IMG/VR virus record: IMGVR_UViG_2778261450_000003
Location: 1-38,191 of that record
Direction: 5' to 3' (one strand)
Length of the DNA stretch: 38,191 nucleotides
Source of the DNA: a virus
Taxonomy: Duplodnaviria > Heunggongvirae > Uroviricota > Caudoviricetes
The stretch's first letter is position 1; each line of letters opens with the position of its first letter. The position numbers and the translations under genes are program-made. The notes under the pieces were generated by a model. It ran no database searches and was not told the origin of the DNA. It saw only the letters and a list, made by a program, of their open reading frames with translations. Positions 3,435-38,191 of this stretch are shown in pieces.

Positions 3435-4006
3435 GTTTTCCCTTCCTCTTTCACGCTCCCGATGCCAACAGCATCCAGACCAGAGCCAACGGCATCATTG
3501 ATTTTTTTCCAGAACGAACTTTGCGTATTCATGCCTTTGTCTGGTACCTGTTCGCTGCCATTCTGGGTCTGCTGTCTGGCGATGGTTTTCTGCGAACCGC
3601 TGCGTGCGGATGCTTTCTCTGGCACGCTTAATTTTTCCCTGAGAGTAAAGGTGATCTGCCAGTGCATTTTTCCCTGTTGTTCCGTGGCATCAATGCCACC
3701 AGAAAACACCCCCTGTCGCATATTGATTGCCTTCGCGGTAGCGTTAGCAATGCGATATGTTTTTTTAGCACCGTTGCTTTCTGTTGCCTCCGCAAGCTGA
3801 AAAATACGGGTCAGAATAGCTTCATCGTTAAAATCAATAACCCCCGACACGCGCAGCTCTTTAGCCTTGTTTCCCTGCTGGGCGCTCGTGGTGCTGGTTG
3901 ACTGTCCGGACATATCTTTGTCCGGTAGTTGCATGGTGGCGCTGACGGTGATGTTACGCAGCAGAATGGCTTCCCCGTCAAGCGCAAGGACAATCATCTG
4001 GGTCAT
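3431..4006 (-). CDS. hypothetical protein in tail operon (possible tail/baseplate component)
   Basis: 191-aa ORF with AGGGAA RBS; ATGA-coupled to the hub/spike gene; no motif recognised. Confidence 0.35.
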   Translation of the reverse strand: MTQMIVLALDGEAILLRNITVSATMQLPDKDMSGQSTSTTSAQQGNKAKELRVSGVIDFNDEAILTRIFQLAEATESNGAKKTYRIANATAKAINMRQGVFSGGIDATEQQGKMHWQITFTLREKLSVPEKASARSGSQKTIARQQTQNGSEQVPDKGMNTQSSFWKKINDAVGSGLDAVGIGSVKEEGKT

Positions 4007-27051: not shown

Positions 27052-27142
27052 CGGGATTCTGAAATCCCGCTTTTGCCTGTTTTGTGCGCGCTTCATATAT
27101 CGCGGCACGTTTTTTGCTCATTTACGGGATTTGTGAATCCCG
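27052..27142. promoter_or_regulatory. two copies of the palindrome CGGGATT-N4-AATCCCG flanking the parM promoter (candidate parC operator/centromere)
   Basis: Copies at 27052-27069 and 27125-27142, each preceded by TTTACG, centres 73 bp apart; the second lies in the 3' end of the replication gene. Confidence 0.4.
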
Positions 27143-29915
27143 TTTCTGTCTGTTTTTTGTTTCCACTGGTCAGGCCACCCCGCAGCAGGTCTGCTTTGCG
27201 GCGGGCGCGTTCAGTGGTTTCACTGATTCTCTGTGCGTGCTCTGCGTCGCGGATGGCGCGCAGCATGTCAGAAAGCACGGTAACGGGTGTTTTCATGGTG
27301 TTCTGGTCCTGCTGAAGTGTGGATGCCAGGCGTGCGGCGGCTTCAGGGTCTGATGCCCCCAGCTGTTCCAGATAGCTGGCGACCGGGTTATGGCGGATCT
27401 CCGTGCTGCTTACGCCGTGATTACGGCTCAGGCGTTGCCAGAGCTGCGTGATTCGGCTGTCCGGGCGGGTATCCGGTTTGCGTACAATTTCAAATCCCTG
27501 CGGTGCAATGATGCTGCCGTCAACGTACAGACTGCCGCCCCGTAACAGGTGCTGCATCTGCTGTTCACCAATATGCAGGCCGAGAGATTCGGCAGACTCC
27601 CGCCATTCTTTAGCGAGTAACTCGTGGTTATCAGGCAAAGGCTGTGGCTGTTTGCGGCTCTGTGTCCAGTTCTGCATTTCATCACTGCTGTTTTTGGCCT
27701 GTTTGTCACGCAGCGAACGCATCAGCGCCCGGCGTTCGTGCCGTTTCAGTGAGCGCATCCATTCATTCACTTCAATGCCGTCAGGAAGCTGCGGCCACGG
27801 TGCTGGCCGTTCTTCCGGCTGTTCTGTCCCGTTGTTGTCCGTTTCCTGTACACGGGGACAGTTATTGCCACGAGTCCAAGGGGCGGCAGGGCCGCCCTGA
27901 AGGTCAAAACCATTTTCGCGGGCGCTGTCTTCCGCTTCCGGTTTACGTCTTACCAGCTTCCAGTTATCCGGATGTGTGCACACACGGGAAGACTCCCCGA
28001 TGAGCGGCGACCAGATCCCGTAAATCTGTACGCTCTGTTCGCCGTAATCGTTCAGCTCATCTGCGAGGTCGTAGGCCGTGCGAATCAGGTAGTCTTTGCG
28101 TGGAACAAGTACGCCGCCCTGTTTCTCTATGTAGGAGGCAAAACACCCGGCATCAGCGGCAGCGAGTACCGCATCCATTGCGTCATTTTCCAGACGTTGT
28201 GGTCCCTGTGGGTTGCGGGCCATCTGACAGGCAAGGCGGCGCAGTTCACGCCACACCTGACGGGAGGGGATGCCAAAGAACTGGAACTGGCGGACCCGGT
28301 GAAGGCGCGCCCAGCCGATGGCGCGCTCCACGCTTTCTGCCATCGTCTTTCCTGATTCGTCGTCGATGCGCGGTTTGCCTGTTTTCGGGTCAATGCCATC
28401 CACGGCGTGGCTGTCCAGGTTCTTTCCGATGTAGGTGGCGATGTAGCTGGTCGGCGTACCTTTCGAACCGTCGACGTACTCTGCCTTAAAGCGCGGAGTT
28501 ATGTCATTACCCAGCTCGTGGCGGTCTTCGCGAATGGCAATATCACGGGTGATGTCCACGATGCTGTCGATTTCTTCAGGATGTGCAAAGACCATCATGT
28601 GCCAGTGCACGGTGCCGTCATGGTGAGGCTCCACCGTGCGAATGCCATACCAGCGCAGACCGTCGCGGTTCAGTTTTTTGCGGACCGCCTTAAAAAACGT
28701 GTTAACCAGGTAATCGCTGGAATCGCGCATGGTGGCCCCGTTCCATTTGGGGTTAGGGTGACCGTTCTCCGTTGTTGCGTGGTACTTCGAAGGGGTGGTG
28801 ACAGTCAGAAACACCGCTCTGTCGCCACGGGCTTCGGCCAGAAGCTCCAGCCCCTTCATGGTGGCCATCATTTCTGCCTTACGGTGAACCGGGTTACTTA
28901 CTCCCGCGTAATACACTGTCTCGAGATCAATCGTGAACCCGTCTTCGTTTTCCAGCATGAAACTTTTCAGGAAATCGCGTGTTTTCTCGCGCTGTGCGCG
29001 AAACTCGCTTAACGCGTTCTGGCTCAGATAGGGCGATGTTTTTCTGGAAACCAGACAGGCGGCGCGGAGTTGTTCTTCTCTCCACTCGCAACGTAACAGC
29101 CACAGTTTGCGTTTCCACCATTCCGCACAGGTCAGGCGAAGGATTGCTCCCGGCAGCAGCTCCGTGTCCGGTTCGTTCCTCCGGTCTTTGTCTGTTGTCA
29201 GTGCTTCATAATGCGGAGGCATGGCGTGCAGGTGTAACGCCATGCGGGCCAGCATCTGATACGCCTTCAGCGTTACATCCATGGTCAGCTCGCCATCAGT
29301 CGCACCAAAGCCATCGCAGAGCTTTTCGAAGGTGCTGCTGAACATCGCCGCCGTCATGGTGGCCAGCGTCTGTATCTGGTGTTTGTTGAGCTGCGGCAGG
29401 TAAAGCAAATCGTCCAGGCGTTCGCGTCCGGCAAGGGAGCGATAACCCGGTGTCAGCCAGCGTCCGTCAGTGCGATCCAGACGTTCGAATATTTTGCGCA
29501 GGGTTCCGCGTGCATAGCGTTCCGCCTGCCAGCTCTTTTTGCCTTTCCGGCGATCGGCTTCCTGTTTTTTGCGCAGGAAGGAGAGGTGGCGAATAAGCGG
29601 ATCGCGCAGATAGGATGGCAGCAGGCGCAGCGAGGCCATGGCTTCATCCACCGCGCCGCGTGCCTGTTTTCTGGCTTCTCTGGCCAGTGTGATGGTTTTG
29701 TCCTGTTTTTCCTGTGCGTCCAGGCTTTTATTAATCAGGTTGCCCAGCGGTGTGGCGGAGAACGCCGCATCAGCTATTTCCTGGCGGCGCTCGTTCTCTT
29801 CCCGGTAGGCATCCAGCCAGGAGGAAAGCGCGGATTCAGGAGCGGGGATCCCCGTTCCTTCACGCCCCACTGCGTGGCGCGGTTGTTGCCAGTCCCTGAT
29901 GTACTCTGCCGTCAT
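27093..29915 (-). CDS. replication initiation endonuclease, P2 gpA-like
   Basis: 940-aa ORF, the largest early gene; contains HHDGTVHWHMMVF, resembling HUH rolling-circle endonuclease metal-binding motifs; position upstream of the late region as in P2. Confidence 0.75.
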   Translation of the reverse strand: MTAEYIRDWQQPRHAVGREGTGIPAPESALSSWLDAYREENERRQEIADAAFSATPLGNLINKSLDAQEKQDKTITLAREARKQARGAVDEAMASLRLLPSYLRDPLIRHLSFLRKKQEADRRKGKKSWQAERYARGTLRKIFERLDRTDGRWLTPGYRSLAGRERLDDLLYLPQLNKHQIQTLATMTAAMFSSTFEKLCDGFGATDGELTMDVTLKAYQMLARMALHLHAMPPHYEALTTDKDRRNEPDTELLPGAILRLTCAEWWKRKLWLLRCEWREEQLRAACLVSRKTSPYLSQNALSEFRAQREKTRDFLKSFMLENEDGFTIDLETVYYAGVSNPVHRKAEMMATMKGLELLAEARGDRAVFLTVTTPSKYHATTENGHPNPKWNGATMRDSSDYLVNTFFKAVRKKLNRDGLRWYGIRTVEPHHDGTVHWHMMVFAHPEEIDSIVDITRDIAIREDRHELGNDITPRFKAEYVDGSKGTPTSYIATYIGKNLDSHAVDGIDPKTGKPRIDDESGKTMAESVERAIGWARLHRVRQFQFFGIPSRQVWRELRRLACQMARNPQGPQRLENDAMDAVLAAADAGCFASYIEKQGGVLVPRKDYLIRTAYDLADELNDYGEQSVQIYGIWSPLIGESSRVCTHPDNWKLVRRKPEAEDSARENGFDLQGGPAAPWTRGNNCPRVQETDNNGTEQPEERPAPWPQLPDGIEVNEWMRSLKRHERRALMRSLRDKQAKNSSDEMQNWTQSRKQPQPLPDNHELLAKEWRESAESLGLHIGEQQMQHLLRGGSLYVDGSIIAPQGFEIVRKPDTRPDSRITQLWQRLSRNHGVSSTEIRHNPVASYLEQLGASDPEAAARLASTLQQDQNTMKTPVTVLSDMLRAIRDAEHAQRISETTERARRKADLLRGGLTSGNKKQTETGFTNPVNEQKTCRDI

Positions 29916-29921
29916 AGTGAT

Positions 29922-30287
29922 TTACTTCGTCATGCCATTCAGGGTGTCGCGGCAGACGGCAGCCAGCCGCTGAATCTCCAGCGCAGTGTCTTCTGTGTCG
30001 GCATGGTGGTGTGTGATGCGGATGCTGTCGGCAATCACATCGACGATCGCAGAGGATGGGCGCTGGTAAATGCCAATAACGGACGGGGTGCCACCTTCAA
30101 TGCGGTAAAGCCTGTAATTTCCCTCGTGGCTGTCAATCATGTAGCGACCATCAATAACAATCTTTCCGTCAGCGAGCTGCGGTACAGGCAGGGATTTCAG
30201 GTACATGTCATAACGTTCACGCACGCGAACGGCAAGATCACGCTCTGTGTTGAGCAGGTATTCAAGAAAGTCGTTGGCGAGAATCAT
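29922..30287 (-). CDS. hypothetical early protein
   Basis: 121-aa ORF with AAGAGGA RBS immediately upstream of the replication gene. Confidence 0.45.
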   Translation of the reverse strand: MILANDFLEYLLNTERDLAVRVRERYDMYLKSLPVPQLADGKIVIDGRYMIDSHEGNYRLYRIEGGTPSVIGIYQRPSSAIVDVIADSIRITHHHADTEDTALEIQRLAAVCRDTLNGMTK

Positions 30288-30359
30288 TGCGGCAATCCTC
30301 TTGTTACAGATGTGCGAAGGCCTCCCGCCGCAAGGTGCAGGAAAGGCCCGGAACAGGAA

Positions 30360-30590
30360 TTAATGGAGTTTGTTTTGCTGCTGGATGAGATCCTGAAGAG
30401 ACAGGAGGTCTTCCGCCAGATAGCTGAATACAGCGGCGCAGTAGTCGGCTGAAATAGTACTGTTGAGCCTGTGCAATGCGTTGGATTGCATGATAAAGGC
30501 GATGTGTGCAGCGCGGGTGAGTCTGCGGTCGATTTCAGTCTGGATGTGGCGACGCTCCGCGATAGCGCGGTGCTGTTTGCGGTTTGCCAT
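30360..30590 (-). CDS. hypothetical small early protein
   Basis: 76-aa ORF with AGAGG RBS. Confidence 0.4.
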   Translation of the reverse strand: MANRKQHRAIAERRHIQTEIDRRLTRAAHIAFIMQSNALHRLNSTISADYCAAVFSYLAEDLLSLQDLIQQQNKLH

Positions 30591-30957
30591 GATATGTGGC
30601 CTCTTGTAGTAAGTTGTGAAAACTCACCATCCAGAGCTGCGAAACTGTGGGTGGCGAGACGTACGAGGTTCGCAGTACCGGCTACAAGAGATCCCGGCCC
30701 GACCGAAGTCGGCCCCGTACGCCCCGCCATAATTCTGACGCGAAAAAAACGTGGCAATACAGTACACACAAAAAAACCGCTGGCGCGGTTGTGCGCTCTT
30801 GTAGTCAGCAGGCTGCGAAACCCGGCACCCGTTTTATGAGGTGCAGCGAAAATGTAACCTGACTGATTGCGGCATGGCAAGCGGTTTTTTTGTGAGAACG
30901 GCATACTAAAAAATCCTGATACTGCTCCGGCCAGCGGTTTGCACTGGCCGGGTGTCA

Positions 30958-31788
30958 TTACTTCACGGGAACGAACGGAACAGCGGTGTTACTGGTCATG
31001 TATTGCGGCAGCGTGCCGTTCCATTTGTTGATCGCTTCCAGCTCCATAACGCCGGGATTCTGGCGCAGAGCTTCGCCGCGTAAACGAATGGCGTCGGCTT
31101 CAGCCTGGGCTTTTGTGCGAATGGCATCGGCCTGTCCGGCAGCTTCTGCGCGCAACATGTTGGCTTCTGCTTCGCGTTGCTTGACTTCCTGTTCGCGTTG
31201 CAGGGTTTTCTGGTTTGCCGTGACTTTGGCGTTAATGCTGTCGATAACGGTTGGCGGATATTCCGGTTTACCGACATAAGAGAGGCTCATGACCTGAATA
31301 CCGATGGGGGTCATCTCTTCCTGAATATCTTTAAGTGCTGAATCCAGCAGTTCAGACTTACCACCGTCGATAAACTTATCGGTGGTCATTTTGCTGGCCA
31401 GTCGGTTGAGTGCATCGGCGATCTTCTGGCGCAGGTCAGTGTCGGTAATGTCGTCCACGCCTTTGCGGTAGGTCTGAAACACCGTGGTAACTTTGGATGG
31501 ATCAACTTTGTAGGCCACGCCGATGTGATAGCCGATGGTTGTGCCGTCACTCATCTGGAAGTTGAACGGCTCATCGTAAGTCTTCATTTGTTTGAAGGTC
31601 GGGAAGATGTAAACCTCTGTATTCCAGCCTGTCCAGTAGCGGCCAACGCCAACCACTTCACCGACGCCTTTGTCGTCGCCCAGTTTGTTGACTTTGATGC
31701 CCACATTACCTGGCTCAACGCGATCGCAACCAACCAGCAGGATGGCGGCAAAAAGCGGGAGAATCTGAAAGAGTTTGAATTTCTTCAT
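30958..31788 (-). CDS. SPFH/band-7 (stomatin-prohibitin-like) lipoprotein
   Basis: 276-aa ORF; N-terminal signal with lipobox LLVGC; central SPFH-like region and Ala/Glu/Arg-rich coiled-coil C-terminus typical of band-7 proteins. Confidence 0.7.
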   Translation of the reverse strand: MKKFKLFQILPLFAAILLVGCDRVEPGNVGIKVNKLGDDKGVGEVVGVGRYWTGWNTEVYIFPTFKQMKTYDEPFNFQMSDGTTIGYHIGVAYKVDPSKVTTVFQTYRKGVDDITDTDLRQKIADALNRLASKMTTDKFIDGGKSELLDSALKDIQEEMTPIGIQVMSLSYVGKPEYPPTVIDSINAKVTANQKTLQREQEVKQREAEANMLRAEAAGQADAIRTKAQAEADAIRLRGEALRQNPGVMELEAINKWNGTLPQYMTSNTAVPFVPVK

Positions 31789-35598: not shown

Positions 35599-35898
35599 AT
35601 GTCAATACCACTACATGAAAAACTACAGTTAATCCGAGATTCAGAACGCCTTAAATCTAAGCAAGTTGCTGATTTGATTGGTGTAAATTATGGTACGTAC
35701 AACGGTTATGAGTTAGGCAAGGCGAAAATGTCATTGGAGGCTGCGATCAAACTCTTTGGTCATCCCCGTTTCCATAAGTATCAAGATTGGTTCATGTATG
35801 ACCGTATAGACCCTAGCCGAGGTCAGATCGCCCCGGCTCTTGCACACACTGGGCCAGAGACAACACAATCTGGCCCCTCCGGGAAACAGATTGGTTAA
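35599..35898 (+). CDS. immunity repressor, P2 C-like
   Basis: 99-aa ORF; ADLIGVNYGT...YQDWFM...RGQIAPALAHTGPETTQSGPSGKQIG matches remembered P2 C (ADLTGVPYGT...TLWFM...SGQIAPALAHFGQNETTSPHSGQKTG); directly upstream of the integrase. Confidence 0.75.
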   Translation: MSIPLHEKLQLIRDSERLKSKQVADLIGVNYGTYNGYELGKAKMSLEAAIKLFGHPRFHKYQDWFMYDRIDPSRGQIAPALAHTGPETTQSGPSGKQIG

Positions 35899-35967
35899 CG
35901 CTTTATAAACATTACATTTTCACCATTTGTTTTCAGGATGGTGAACTGACTGTTGGAGGGACTTCTT

Positions 35968-36990
35968 GTGTCTGTTAAGAAGCTCGAAGATGGTCGCTAT
36001 GAAGTGGATGTAAGGCCGCGCGGGCGCGACGGAAAGCGTATCCGGCGGAAGTTTGAGAGAAAAGCGGAGGCGCATGCTTTTGAACGAAGCATCATTGCAA
36101 AGTATCAGAACCATGACTACCTGAGTCGTCCTGCAGACAAGCGGCGACTGAGTGAGTTTATCGCTTTGTGGTGGCAGCTCATTGGACGTAATAAGAACTA
36201 CGCTAATCGTAGGCTTAGTGCGTTAAGCTGTATTTGCCAGGATATGGGGGATCCCATGATTTACCAGATTGATGGTCGATGCCTTATCGAATACCGGGCA
36301 TATAGATTGGGGCAAGGTATAAAGGCTTCAACGATTAACCATGATCTTTTTGCTCTGAGCGGTATGTTTAAGGCGATGGCTGAGATCGATGAGTTTCATG
36401 GGGATAATCCTGTAGAGGCAATATCTGCTTTAAAAGAGCCAAAAACTGAGATGTCTTACTTTACCGAGTCTGAGGTTAAGCGGTTATTATCCTTATGCAC
36501 TGGTGATTATTTCCGGATTGCTGTTCTCTTGCTTGCAACTGGTGCGAGGTGGGGTGAGGCTTATCAGCTCAAAGCGGAAAATATTGTGGGTGATAGGGTG
36601 ATATTTACGCTTACAAAAAATGGCGAGCGACGAGTTGTTCCCATTTCAGAGGAGGTTGTAAATATTGTAAGGCATCGAGAATCTGGTCGACTTTTTCGTG
36701 TGAGTTACAAAACTTTTCGTTTAAAAATGAAAGAGGCAAAACCTAATTTACCTGATGGTCAGGCAGCTCATGCATTGCGTCATACGTTTGCTACTCATTT
36801 TATGATGAAGGGCGGGAATATAATTGCGTTACAAAGAATTCTTGGTCACGCAGATATTTCACAAACAATGACATATGCTCATTTTGCACCTGATTATTTA
36901 TTGGATGCAGTGAATTATAATCCTCTTGTGGGAATGTCCACATTGTGTCCACACTTTGGAGGCAAAGTGGGGATTTTAGAGGGTAGTTAA
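35968..36990 (+). CDS. int: tyrosine integrase, P2 Int-like
   Basis: About 340 aa from the GTG at 35968 (GGAGGG RBS; the track's ORF starts at TTG 35953); N-terminus KKLEDGRYEVDVRPRGRDGKRIRRKF and C-terminal HALRHTFATHF...LGH...TMTYAH catalytic region match P2 Int. Confidence 0.85.
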   Translation: MSVKKLEDGRYEVDVRPRGRDGKRIRRKFERKAEAHAFERSIIAKYQNHDYLSRPADKRRLSEFIALWWQLIGRNKNYANRRLSALSCICQDMGDPMIYQIDGRCLIEYRAYRLGQGIKASTINHDLFALSGMFKAMAEIDEFHGDNPVEAISALKEPKTEMSYFTESEVKRLLSLCTGDYFRIAVLLLATGARWGEAYQLKAENIVGDRVIFTLTKNGERRVVPISEEVVNIVRHRESGRLFRVSYKTFRLKMKEAKPNLPDGQAAHALRHTFATHFMMKGGNIIALQRILGHADISQTMTYAHFAPDYLLDAVNYNPLVGMSTLCPHFGGKVGILEGS

Positions 36991-37258
36991 GTCTGTAAAA
37001 TGTTGAATTGGCGCAGTATGTTACGGTACTGCGCCTATTGAGATCCTCCCAGCAAGGGGAAGGTCAAGAAATTAATAAACCAGGCGAGTAAAAGTCCGTA
37101 AAGATTAAAAAATTGGCTCAATTTGCATCAGGATTAGACATTTATCTCTTTGTTTTCCTGAAGTTAAGTTGCGGGTGCTAAGTTAAATCAAGATGCCTGA
37201 AAATCGGCACCGGGGTGAGGAATTACCTCCCGCATCTATAAAAAGGAGTTAACAAAAG

Positions 37259-38191
37259 ATGTTAGATGCAAACAAATTACAGCAGGCAGTGGATCAGGCT
37301 TACACCCAATTTCACTCACTTAACGGCGGACAAAATGCCGACTACATTCCCTTTCTGGCGAATGTACCTAGTCAACTGGCAGCAGTGGCTATTGTGACCT
37401 GCGATGGCAACATCTATCGCGCGGGTGATAGTGATTACCGCTTTGCGCTGGAATCCATCTCGAAAGTCTGTACGTTAGCCCTTGCGTTAGAGGATGTCGG
37501 CCCGCAGGCGGTACAGGACAAAATTGGCGCTGACCCGACCGGATTGCCCTTTAACTCAGTTATCGCCTTAGAGTTGCATGGCGGCAAACCGCTTTCGCCA
37601 CTGGTAAATGCTGGCGCCATTGCCACCACCAGCCTGATTAACGCTGAAAATGTTGAACAACGCTGGCAGCGAATTTTACATATCCAACAGCAACTGGCTG
37701 GTGAGCAGGTAGCGCTCTCTGACGAAGTCAACCAGTCGGAACAAACAACCAACTTCCATAACCGGGCCATTGCCTGGCTGCTGTACTCCGCCGAATATCT
37801 CTATTGTGATGCAATGGAAGCCTGTGACGTGTACACCCGTCAGTGCTCCACGCTCCTCAATACTGTTGAACTGGCAACACTTGGCGCGACGCTGGCGGCG
37901 GGGGGTGTGAATCCGCTGACGCATGAACGCGTTCTTCAGGCCGACAACGTGCCGTACATTCTGGCCGAAATGATGATGGAAGGGCTGTATGGTCGCTCCG
38001 GTGACTGGGCGTATCGCGTTGGTTTACCGGGCAAAAGCGGTGTAGGTGGCGGTATTCTGGCGGTCGTCCCTGGCGTGATGGGAATTGCCGCGTTCTCACC
38101 ACCGCTGGACGAAGAAGGCAACAGTGTTCGCGGTCAAAAAATGGTGGCATCGGTCGCTAAGCAACTCGGCTATAACGTGTTTAAGGGCTGA
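37259..38191 (+). CDS. glsA: glutaminase A (acid-activated glutaminase)
   Basis: 310-aa ORF ending at the window edge, matching remembered E. coli GlsA/YbaS almost throughout (MLDANKLQQAVDQAYTQFHSLNGGQNADYIPFLANVP ... VASVAKQLGYNVFKG). Confidence 0.9.
   Translation: MLDANKLQQAVDQAYTQFHSLNGGQNADYIPFLANVPSQLAAVAIVTCDGNIYRAGDSDYRFALESISKVCTLALALEDVGPQAVQDKIGADPTGLPFNSVIALELHGGKPLSPLVNAGAIATTSLINAENVEQRWQRILHIQQQLAGEQVALSDEVNQSEQTTNFHNRAIAWLLYSAEYLYCDAMEACDVYTRQCSTLLNTVELATLGATLAAGGVNPLTHERVLQADNVPYILAEMMMEGLYGRSGDWAYRVGLPGKSGVGGGILAVVPGVMGIAAFSPPLDEEGNSVRGQKMVASVAKQLGYNVFKG

Follow-up and report, generated by a model that had tools for sequence, protein, structure and literature searches.

A probable IsrK-C4 antisense-RNA immunity cassette of the P4 seqA-CI type in the early operon of a P88-like prophage

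The IMG/VR virus record IMGVR_UViG_2778261450_000003, analysed over its full 38,191 bp and referred to here as the window, is a P88-like prophage of Escherichia coli (Xuanwuvirus, Peduoviridae; P2-related). A 367-bp gap in it, at positions 30591-30957, separates the stop codon of an SPFH/Band-7 gene from the ATG of a gene for a 76-aa protein. This island is very probably an IsrK-C4 antisense-RNA immunity cassette of the P4 seqA-CI type, located in the early operon of the prophage. Confidence in the identification is high, and confidence in the detailed regulatory logic is moderate; RNA processing, the direction of regulation, the interaction between the epsilon-like protein and the C repressor, and the role of translation we infer only, by analogy with characterized relatives. 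The module is a known one, with relatives in P4, P1/P7, N15, Gifsy-1 and Stx phages, and the island is a new example of it, not a new kind of element.

Two RNA genes in tandem

A whole-window Rfam scan at gathering thresholds (GA) returned only two matches, both located in the island, on the minus strand, full length and 35 nt apart. The first is a 75-nt isrK/SeqA-like leader RNA (30844..30770; RF01394, 66.7 bits versus a GA of 50, model positions 1-77 of 77), and the second is an 88-nt C4/CI-like antisense RNA (30734..30647; RF01695, 81.1 bits versus a GA of 45, E = 1.5e-14, model positions 1-87 of 87). The original prediction, made from the sequence, had offered a small RNA, a protein-binding array or a replication origin as explanations of the island, and had proposed a covariance search with Infernal/Rfam as a check. 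With both RNA genes above the gathering score, the small-RNA option was borne out: two curated RNA families stand in tandem, and the repeats of the island are antisense determinants and their targets.

The isrK RNA consists of a 5' hairpin, a second hairpin carrying the word b1 (UUUCGCAG, 30821..30813, minus strand) in its loop, the single-stranded word a1 (CUACAAGAG, 30804..30796, minus strand) and an intrinsic terminator, predicted as a stem at 30790..30775 (minus strand) followed by U7. A minus-strand hairpin with a U-run noticed earlier is this terminator, that is, the terminator of the Rfam isrK match. A sigma-70-like promoter, PisrK, the counterpart of P4 PLE, was predicted at 30880..30851 on the minus strand (-35 TTGCCA, 18-nt spacer, -10 TACATT); it ends 7 nt before isrK model position 1, and its predicted start lies at about 30844. 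The promoter scan gave two sites versus 0.3 expected, and inspection by eye of the 60 nt upstream of isrK found a promoter-like -35/-10 pair at the same position in 16 of 16 cassettes. By prediction, isrK has both a promoter and a terminator of its own. The second promoter-like site, at 30757..30729, was rejected as a promoter for C4: its start would fall inside the C4 closing stem, and its -35 element is not conserved in P88 and phiSM.

The C4 RNA folds into a 17-bp closing stem around hairpin 1 (GGCCGACUUCGGUCGG), which is the GC hairpin reported earlier near 30700-30715, and hairpin 2. The word a' (CUCUUGUAG, 30690..30682, minus strand) occupies the loop of hairpin 2, and the word b' (CUGCGAAC, 30675..30668, minus strand) the single-stranded linker after it. 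The minimum free energy (MFE) of this RNA is -47 kcal/mol (z = -4.2), with the long closing stem and the two hairpins as the MFE structure. Across 15 homologues, 13 of the 27 pairs show compensatory double changes and none is broken, with a' and b' remaining unpaired.

The downstream target, equivalent to seqC or a2-b2, lies upstream of the 76-aa gene at 30645..30601 on the minus strand. It comprises the words b2 (GUUUCGCAG, 30645..30637) and a2 (CUACAAGAG, 30609..30601), both on the same strand, and a2 runs into the Shine-Dalgarno (SD) sequence AAGAGG (30605..30600); the ATG of the 76-aa gene, at 30590, follows 9-10 nt downstream of the a2/SD overlap. The calculated duplex energies of C4 with this target are -13.6 kcal/mol for the a words and -10.5 kcal/mol for the b words.

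Two forward copies and one inverted copy of a motif had been described in the island, and an exact word search agreed with their positions. The word CTCTTGTAG occurs at 30601-30609 and 30796-30804 on the plus strand and at 30682-30690 on the minus strand. These are its sole three matches in the window, versus 0.10 expected, and none of 100 shuffles reached three. CTGCGAAMC occurs at 30637-30645 and 30813-30821 on the plus strand and at 30667-30675 on the minus strand, in addition to an unrelated site at 3590. Both word repeats were also recovered in a repeat listing (entries D10, I6, I8, I9 and I10). The inverted copy corresponds to a' plus b' of C4, and the forward copies correspond to its two targets. 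The single continuous stem of about 90 nt that had been proposed for these copies gives way to two short helices, of 9-10 bp for a and 7+1 bp for b, between the C4 loop and linker and either target copy. When the whole leader is folded, the MFE structure has C4 paired in cis with the upstream (isrK) copy.

Co-variation of the specificity words

The cassette was compared with a panel of 15 other loci, namely P88, phiSM, P4, eight Stx/lambdoid phages, ST64B, cdtI, phiKO2 and Kp4865-1. An isrK match followed by a C4 match on the same strand was found in 15 of 15. In P4, the C4 match is the CI RNA, and isrK matches about 190 nt upstream of it, at the expected place of the PLE leader. The panel loci share the target layout, with the ATG 8-14 nt after a2 in most of them. 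The specificity words vary from locus to locus and stay complementary in isrK, C4 and the downstream leader, so that the conservation expected among related prophages was found as complementarity kept at all three places, not as fixed words. Cognate duplexes averaged -23.9 kcal/mol for the downstream target and -23.2 kcal/mol for isrK, versus -11.5 and -9.6 kcal/mol for non-cognate ones, and the cognate target ranked first in 15 of 15 distinct cassettes for both targets. The window (CUCUUGUAG and CUGCGAAC), P88 (CUGUAGUUG and GUGGAAA) and phiSM have flanks about 90% identical and three different word sets, as is characteristic of heteroimmune variants.

A scan of IMG/VR with the 20-mer of C4 hairpin 1 gave 122 cassettes on the same C4 scaffold. 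Among them are 29 combinations of a' and b', about 20 of which stand upstream of an epsilon-like gene. With the pairing register held fixed, a 9-bp a core and a 7+1-bp b core are Watson-Crick paired in nearly all word types.

The controlled gene and its operon

The gene behind the downstream target (30590..30360, minus strand) encodes an epsilon-like protein of 76 aa and bears the name 'derepression protein' in RefSeq. The protein is 29% identical to P4 epsilon over 66 aa (BLASTP, E = 3e-8), its family profile matched P4 epsilon with 93% probability in hhalign, and eight of eight diverse family members matched Pfam PF25738 (Derepression), with a best value of 4.9e-8. For the 76-aa protein, Derepression was the only Pfam family matched, below its gathering score and without an Icd or Ant match, and there was no Pfam match for the 121-aa protein encoded downstream; NCBIfam gave no match for either. 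On sequence grounds, the 76-aa protein is a putative anti-repressor of the P2-type C repressor. The prophage encodes such a repressor at 35599..35898 on the plus strand (45% identity to P2 C over all 99 residues, E = 2e-29), which is the presumed target by analogy with P4, where epsilon (E) is an anti-repressor that binds P2 C through contacts mapped near residues 63-70 (PMC2995052). W64 and I70 of P2 C are conserved in the prophage protein.

Downstream of the 76-aa gene lie the 121-aa gene (29922-30287) and a gene for a 940-aa P2 A-type replication endonuclease (27093-29915; Pfam Phage_GPA, 6.5e-130), both on the minus strand. No promoter-like site was found on either strand at 29800-30650; the 121-aa gene and gene A must therefore be transcribed through the cassette. 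The 121-aa gene was considered as a counterpart of P4 ORF151 and rejected for lack of similarity. No LexA box within one mismatch of CTGT-N8-ACAG was found by a regex scan of 30501-31000. In the A-type protein, the Phage_GPA domain covers only residues 179-502, leaving long N- and C-terminal regions without a domain assignment; P2 A is encoded by 2286 nt in the P2 record, corresponding to about 761 aa.

A through-frame and an inverted-repeat arm

The original prediction had found no credible ORF in the island. This is incomplete: a frame of 224 codons (30958..30284, minus strand) is open across the whole island and past its end; it does not resemble a conserved protein, but the absence of stops in it is conserved. 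Its ATG forms TAATG with the SPFH stop codon, its stop forms ATGA with the ATG of the 121-aa gene, and a second in-frame ATG at 30904 lies near the left edge of the conserved module. This through-frame runs across the promoter, isrK, its terminator, C4 and the target, and then across the epsilon gene out of frame. It contains no internal stop, versus five and four in the two further frames of the minus strand; in shuffles of the island alone, any one frame stays open with a probability of about 0.008. Among 69 unique cassettes it is stop-free in 64 over the RNA part and in 65 over the epsilon overlap; the one remaining frame has a mean of 1.5 and 3.0 stops there, respectively. Within the epsilon gene, the synonymous excess lies in the epsilon frame (537:975) and not in the through-frame (128:1285), and the through-frame is therefore not a conserved protein. 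In the panel, such a frame was found in 10 of 15 cassettes, P4 included; all ten cassettes stand directly behind another gene, and the frames start 57-360 nt upstream of the isrK start. The five stand-alone cassettes are without one. No matches were obtained in a PHROG search of the small island ORFs on either strand (71, 122, 47 and 54 aa).

This arrangement, with the cassette promoter and both RNAs inside an upstream-started frame that is coupled to the preceding gene, is that of P4. In a published account (PMC10111431), PLE, seqA and CI of P4 are placed inside the frame eta, which is coupled to the gene upstream. The same account, summarising Forti 1999, states that translation of eta from upstream transcripts prevents termination, and it describes premature transcription termination that depends on CI and is suppressed by translation of the frame.

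A second and weaker possibility involves a 28-nt inverted repeat. Its upstream arm (30904..30877, minus strand) is 82% complementary to 30784-30757, which spans the isrK terminator from its 3' half through the U-run and continues for 13 nt. The arm lies just 5' of the isrK start and is therefore present only in transcripts from upstream. In the MFE fold with upstream RNA, the terminator is replaced by the arm helix, and in the window 70 nt or more of upstream RNA takes the terminator probability from 0.83 down to 0.00; P88 and phiSM behave likewise, and in other cassettes the probability mostly stays high. Across at least eight upstream contexts the arm was always within the conserved module. 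Covariation of the inverted repeat across 93 epsilon-type cassettes was uninformative, the arm being near invariant and the lengths of the A- and U-runs inconsistently matched. The arm may act as an antiterminator, or its A-tract may just as well be an UP element of the promoter.

Proposed mechanism and alternative explanations

By analogy with P1 and P4, the cassette would work as follows. Transcription would start at about 30844 from the promoter at 30880..30851, and most transcripts would end at the terminator (30790..30770) to give the 75-nt IsrK/SeqA-like RNA. Read-through transcripts would carry the 88-nt C4/CI-like RNA (30734..30647), which would be excised, with RNase P acting at the 5' end, and would accumulate as do P1 C4 and P4 CI; C4 and CI are listed as RNase P substrates (PMC5499578), and excision from a longer RNA and action in trans are known for P1 C4 and P4 CI. 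C4 would display a' in the loop of a hairpin and b' in a linker that is single-stranded, and these would pair with a2 and b2 upstream of the 76-aa gene, burying the SD sequence. The predicted consequence is a block of translation, as in P1, premature termination, as in P4, or both. The putative anti-repressor would thus be held down and, by polarity, so would the 121-aa gene and the replication gene A. The words a' and b' would also pair with a1 and b1 in the IsrK leader; IsrK would therefore be either a second target, like P4 seqA, or, as in Gifsy-1, a competitor whose titration of C4 turns on the operon. Transcripts from an early promoter would include the start of the through-frame, whose translation, like that of P4 eta, would carry them past the termination point as far as gene A.

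The alternative that survives best, although it appears rather unlikely, is that the logic of Gifsy-1 is the main one and the cassette chiefly an induction switch: the read-through RNA would fold into an inactive form in cis and free IsrK would open it. The pairing of the isrK words in cis with the C4 loop and linker in the whole-leader fold is consistent with this, and so is the recovery of P88 after mitomycin C treatment (PMC5285337). In Gifsy-1 itself, induction requires IsrK, and its over-expression raises translation of anrP by a factor of more than 100 (PMC4825925). However, that logic requires a short ORF of the orf45 type, which was not found, and a2 covers the SD sequence directly, which fits direct antisense repression. 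With IsrK as a competitor for C4, this alternative is compatible with the mechanism preferred here; the two differ in emphasis, not in parts.

A protein-based explanation, in which the 224-codon ORF encodes a transcriptional regulator and the RNA matches are secondary, is very unlikely. The ORF is open and coupled at both ends, its translation matched PHROG 'transcriptional regulator/repressor' families (E = 1e-16), and the same frame is annotated as a CDS in other records, as 'cI gene product' in P4 and as 'antirepressor' in lambdoid phages. The PHROG matches are nevertheless confined to residues 23-126, the isrK-C4-target stretch, and are therefore read as families seeded by translated RNA genes; these appear to be the old P4 'cI' ORF and N-terminally over-extended Ant CDSs. 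Also against a protein are the lack of synonymous excess noted above and the freedom with which the specificity words alter the peptide. The immunity factor of P4 has been described as an RNA, not a protein (PMC3632133, PMC5499578). Translation of the frame may matter as an act and not through its product, as with P4 eta (PMC10111431).

Even less probable is a reading of the repeated words as DNA operators, bound by a small DNA-binding protein encoded nearby, with the hairpins incidental. Two direct copies and one inverted copy within 230 bp do resemble the protein-binding array first envisaged, and an operator model also predicts joint change of all copies. It fails to account for the placement of the words exactly in the unpaired loop and linker of an RNA supported by covariation and in the target leaders. 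Among the 122 cassettes on the same scaffold, moreover, the a and b words reassort independently; a few word positions, in some types, are kept complementary solely as G.U pairs, which are meaningless for recognition of duplex DNA; and one and the same epsilon-like protein can be accompanied by as many as five word sets, one and the same 121-aa protein by as many as four. For homologous modules, experiments have established that they act as RNA (PMC3632133, PMC4825925). Words that co-vary so as to keep RNA complementarity, covariation within C4, and word sets that change beside identical proteins argue for RNA-RNA recognition and against an operator array. The suggestion of a replication origin or other cis-acting DNA site, prompted by clustered repeats and A/T runs near a replication gene, can practically be discarded: nothing else favours it, the P2 record places the nick site at ori inside gene A, ori not having been located in the window itself, the RNA model accounts for every repeat, and lambdoid, N15-like and P4 elements, whose replication systems are unrelated, carry the same cassette.

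Several observations weigh against the antisense-RNA cassette as reconstructed here. The curated C4-target family RF03163 (c4-a1b1) gave 19.6 bits versus a GA of 46.7 (E = 0.013, at 30857..30805); judged by sequence, the upstream targets are of the isrK type, not of the c4-a1b1 type. The 76-aa protein of the window itself scored 21.9 bits on PF25738, below the GA of 27. T67 of P2 C, required for binding of P4 E, is a Tyr in the prophage C repressor, and a change of T67 to Ile renders P2 C insensitive to P4 E (PMC2995052); the Tyr may reflect co-adaptation with the epsilon-like protein of the prophage, or resistance to P4. The published roles of the leader RNA disagree, P4 seqA being a target that promotes termination and Gifsy-1 IsrK a trans-activator (PMC4825925). 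A short coupling ORF like Gifsy-1 orf45 was looked for in the cassette and not found: an AUG is present at the 5' end of C4, but the 148-codon frame that it opens is not in frame with the epsilon ATG and stops 304 nt beyond it. The conservation of the through-frame is partly inheritance, as the loci showing it are closely related. Finally, we infer the transcripts, their processing and the direction of regulation in this prophage.

A wider reading is offered tentatively, as quite possible but short of probable. The P4-type cassette in P88-type relatives of P2 would be a second layer of immunity over the C/Cox switch, gating an epsilon-type anti-repressor together with gene A; early transcripts would escape by translation of the through-frame of 205-224 codons, to which the 28-nt arm might contribute; and the two reassorting words would define about 20 heteroimmunity groups in phages that are nearly identical otherwise.

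The host element and its annotation

Over this stretch, the prophage shares 99.8% identity with E. coli VTB97432v and 87.5% with phage P88. The element carries an integrase (35953-36990), the P2 A-type endonuclease and the P2-like C repressor, and its RefSeq homologue also has a Cox-family protein. A P4-like satellite, the first guess from the 940-aa ORF, was rejected: the ORF is a Phage_GPA protein and the element a complete P88-like phage. Beyond the integrase, a 310-aa ORF (37259-38191, plus strand) reaches the right end of the window and looks like a host gene, so that the prophage end or attachment site probably lies at about 37000-37250. Behind the replication endonuclease gene, related loci have a gene for a 'plasmid segregation protein ParM' (L001, 1-732; P88, L002, 1-717), a position that in the window lies to the left of 27093. 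Such a gene is unusual for P2 and hints at an option of plasmid-like maintenance.

The upstream neighbour of the island, the SPFH/Band-7 gene (30958..31788, minus strand), occupies a variable position. P88 has the same gene there, phiSM has a gene for a 'DNA binding protein', the equivalent slot in a related phage is L009 1819-2370, and at least eight upstream contexts were seen in IMG/VR loci, homology breaking off immediately ahead of ...CACACAAAAAAACCGCTTGCCA. This slot may be a cargo hotspot. A further hairpin reported earlier at about 30920-30945 was found as a GC-rich 10-bp stem (30951..30927, minus strand; MFE fold) directly after the SPFH stop codon, with a U6 starting 12 nt later. This hairpin (30927..30951) is part of the SPFH insert, not of the conserved cassette, and is missing from cassettes with other upstream genes; it may be a weak terminator or a stabiliser.

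No RNA is annotated at the cassette in RefSeq or in the P88 record, and the isrK-C4 pair is unmentioned in the accessible P88 and phiSM publications; GenBank LC710660 annotates exactly this RNA pair. In P88, the 'hypothetical protein' gp13 (NC_026014, 4352-4540, plus strand) corresponds to about 30651-30839 (plus strand) of the window and is antisense to C4 and isrK; the window version has no PHROG match, and the CDS is probably spurious. In lambdoid and Stx phages, CDSs named 'antirepressor' or 'transcriptional regulator' start 4 nt inside the upstream gene, span isrK, its terminator and C4, and stay in frame with the real anti-repressor start (minus strand: L004 960-2111, L005 960-2111, L006 883-2040, L013 934-2079 and L014 898-2046); phrog_995, 6928 and 821 match the translated RNA stretch of these CDSs. 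Phage P13374 (L015) has, at 535-618 on the minus strand, a match to Rfam sRNA-Xcc1 (RF02221, 79.6 bits) that adjoins antB2, about 840 nt downstream of its own C4.

Significance

The known principle of RNA-mediated immunity is unchanged by this example, and its range is extended: a P4-type RNA immunity and anti-repressor unit is placed inside a P2-type, helper-like phage. Specialists may find it of interest that the cassette sits in a P2-type early operon, has an epsilon homologue as its target, is crossed by a through-frame that is out of frame with that gene, and comes in many word types. The finding bears on the induction of P2 relatives, on heteroimmunity in prophages that are nearly identical, and on the cross-talk of P2-like prophages with P4-like satellites. 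If the second-layer reading is true, the immunity-plus-epsilon module of the satellite P4 shares ancestry with a module of helper-type phages, and the cassette could explain how a P2-type phage becomes inducible. For annotation, a widespread and functionally important RNA module is absent from the annotation that RefSeq gives for these E. coli prophages and from the P88 record, and in other phages its RNA genes have been swallowed by over-extended 'antirepressor' or 'transcriptional regulator' CDSs.

Comparison with known systems

The cassette of P4 contains the same two Rfam families in the same order, with target words flanking the antisense RNA, and is followed by an epsilon-family gene and then a replication gene. 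Its promoter also lies inside a translated frame started upstream (PMC10111431). However, the host of the present cassette is a complete P2-type phage, not a satellite, and the replication gene is of the P2 A type instead of the P4 alpha primase. The epsilon homologue follows the target directly, whereas it lies about 250 nt further on in P4, and the through-frame overlaps it out of frame. The spacer between isrK and C4 is 35 nt here and 107 nt in P4, and the specificity words differ. A feature of P4's own is an AUG at the 5' end of CI that is in frame with the ATG following the a2 target.

The immI system of P1/P7 shares RF01695, the two words in a loop and a linker, and the duplicated targets upstream and downstream, of which the downstream one covers the ribosome-binding site. 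There, too, heteroimmunity is set by the words, and the main repressor is counteracted by the controlled gene (PMC12197685). The protein under control is a member of the epsilon family here and is Icd/Ant in P1, and the upstream targets are of the isrK type (RF01394), not c4-a1b1 (RF03163).

In the isrK-orf45-anrP-isrJ locus of Gifsy-1 (Salmonella), an RNA of the isrK family with its own promoter and a leaky terminator is followed by a stable C4-like RNA, STnc1160, and then by an anti-repressor gene; IsrK has been called a SeqA homologue (PMC4825925). There, the 5' end of the C4-like RNA carries the start codon (AUG) of orf45, which ends at the start of the anti-repressor gene, giving translational coupling. 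The present cassette is without an ORF of the orf45 type, controls another anti-repressor family and has no link to AntQ, and the host of the Gifsy-1 cassette is lambdoid.

The isrK-C4 tandem is also found in Stx2a phages, mEp460, ST64B, cdtI and the cA/antA region of phiKO2, with 65-71% nucleotide identity. In these lambdoid, Stx and N15-like phages, as in the prophage described here, the cassette stands in early operons upstream of anti-repressor genes. Their downstream genes, however, are of the Ant, Rha or Bro type, and the frame from the C4 AUG is mostly in frame with the anti-repressor.

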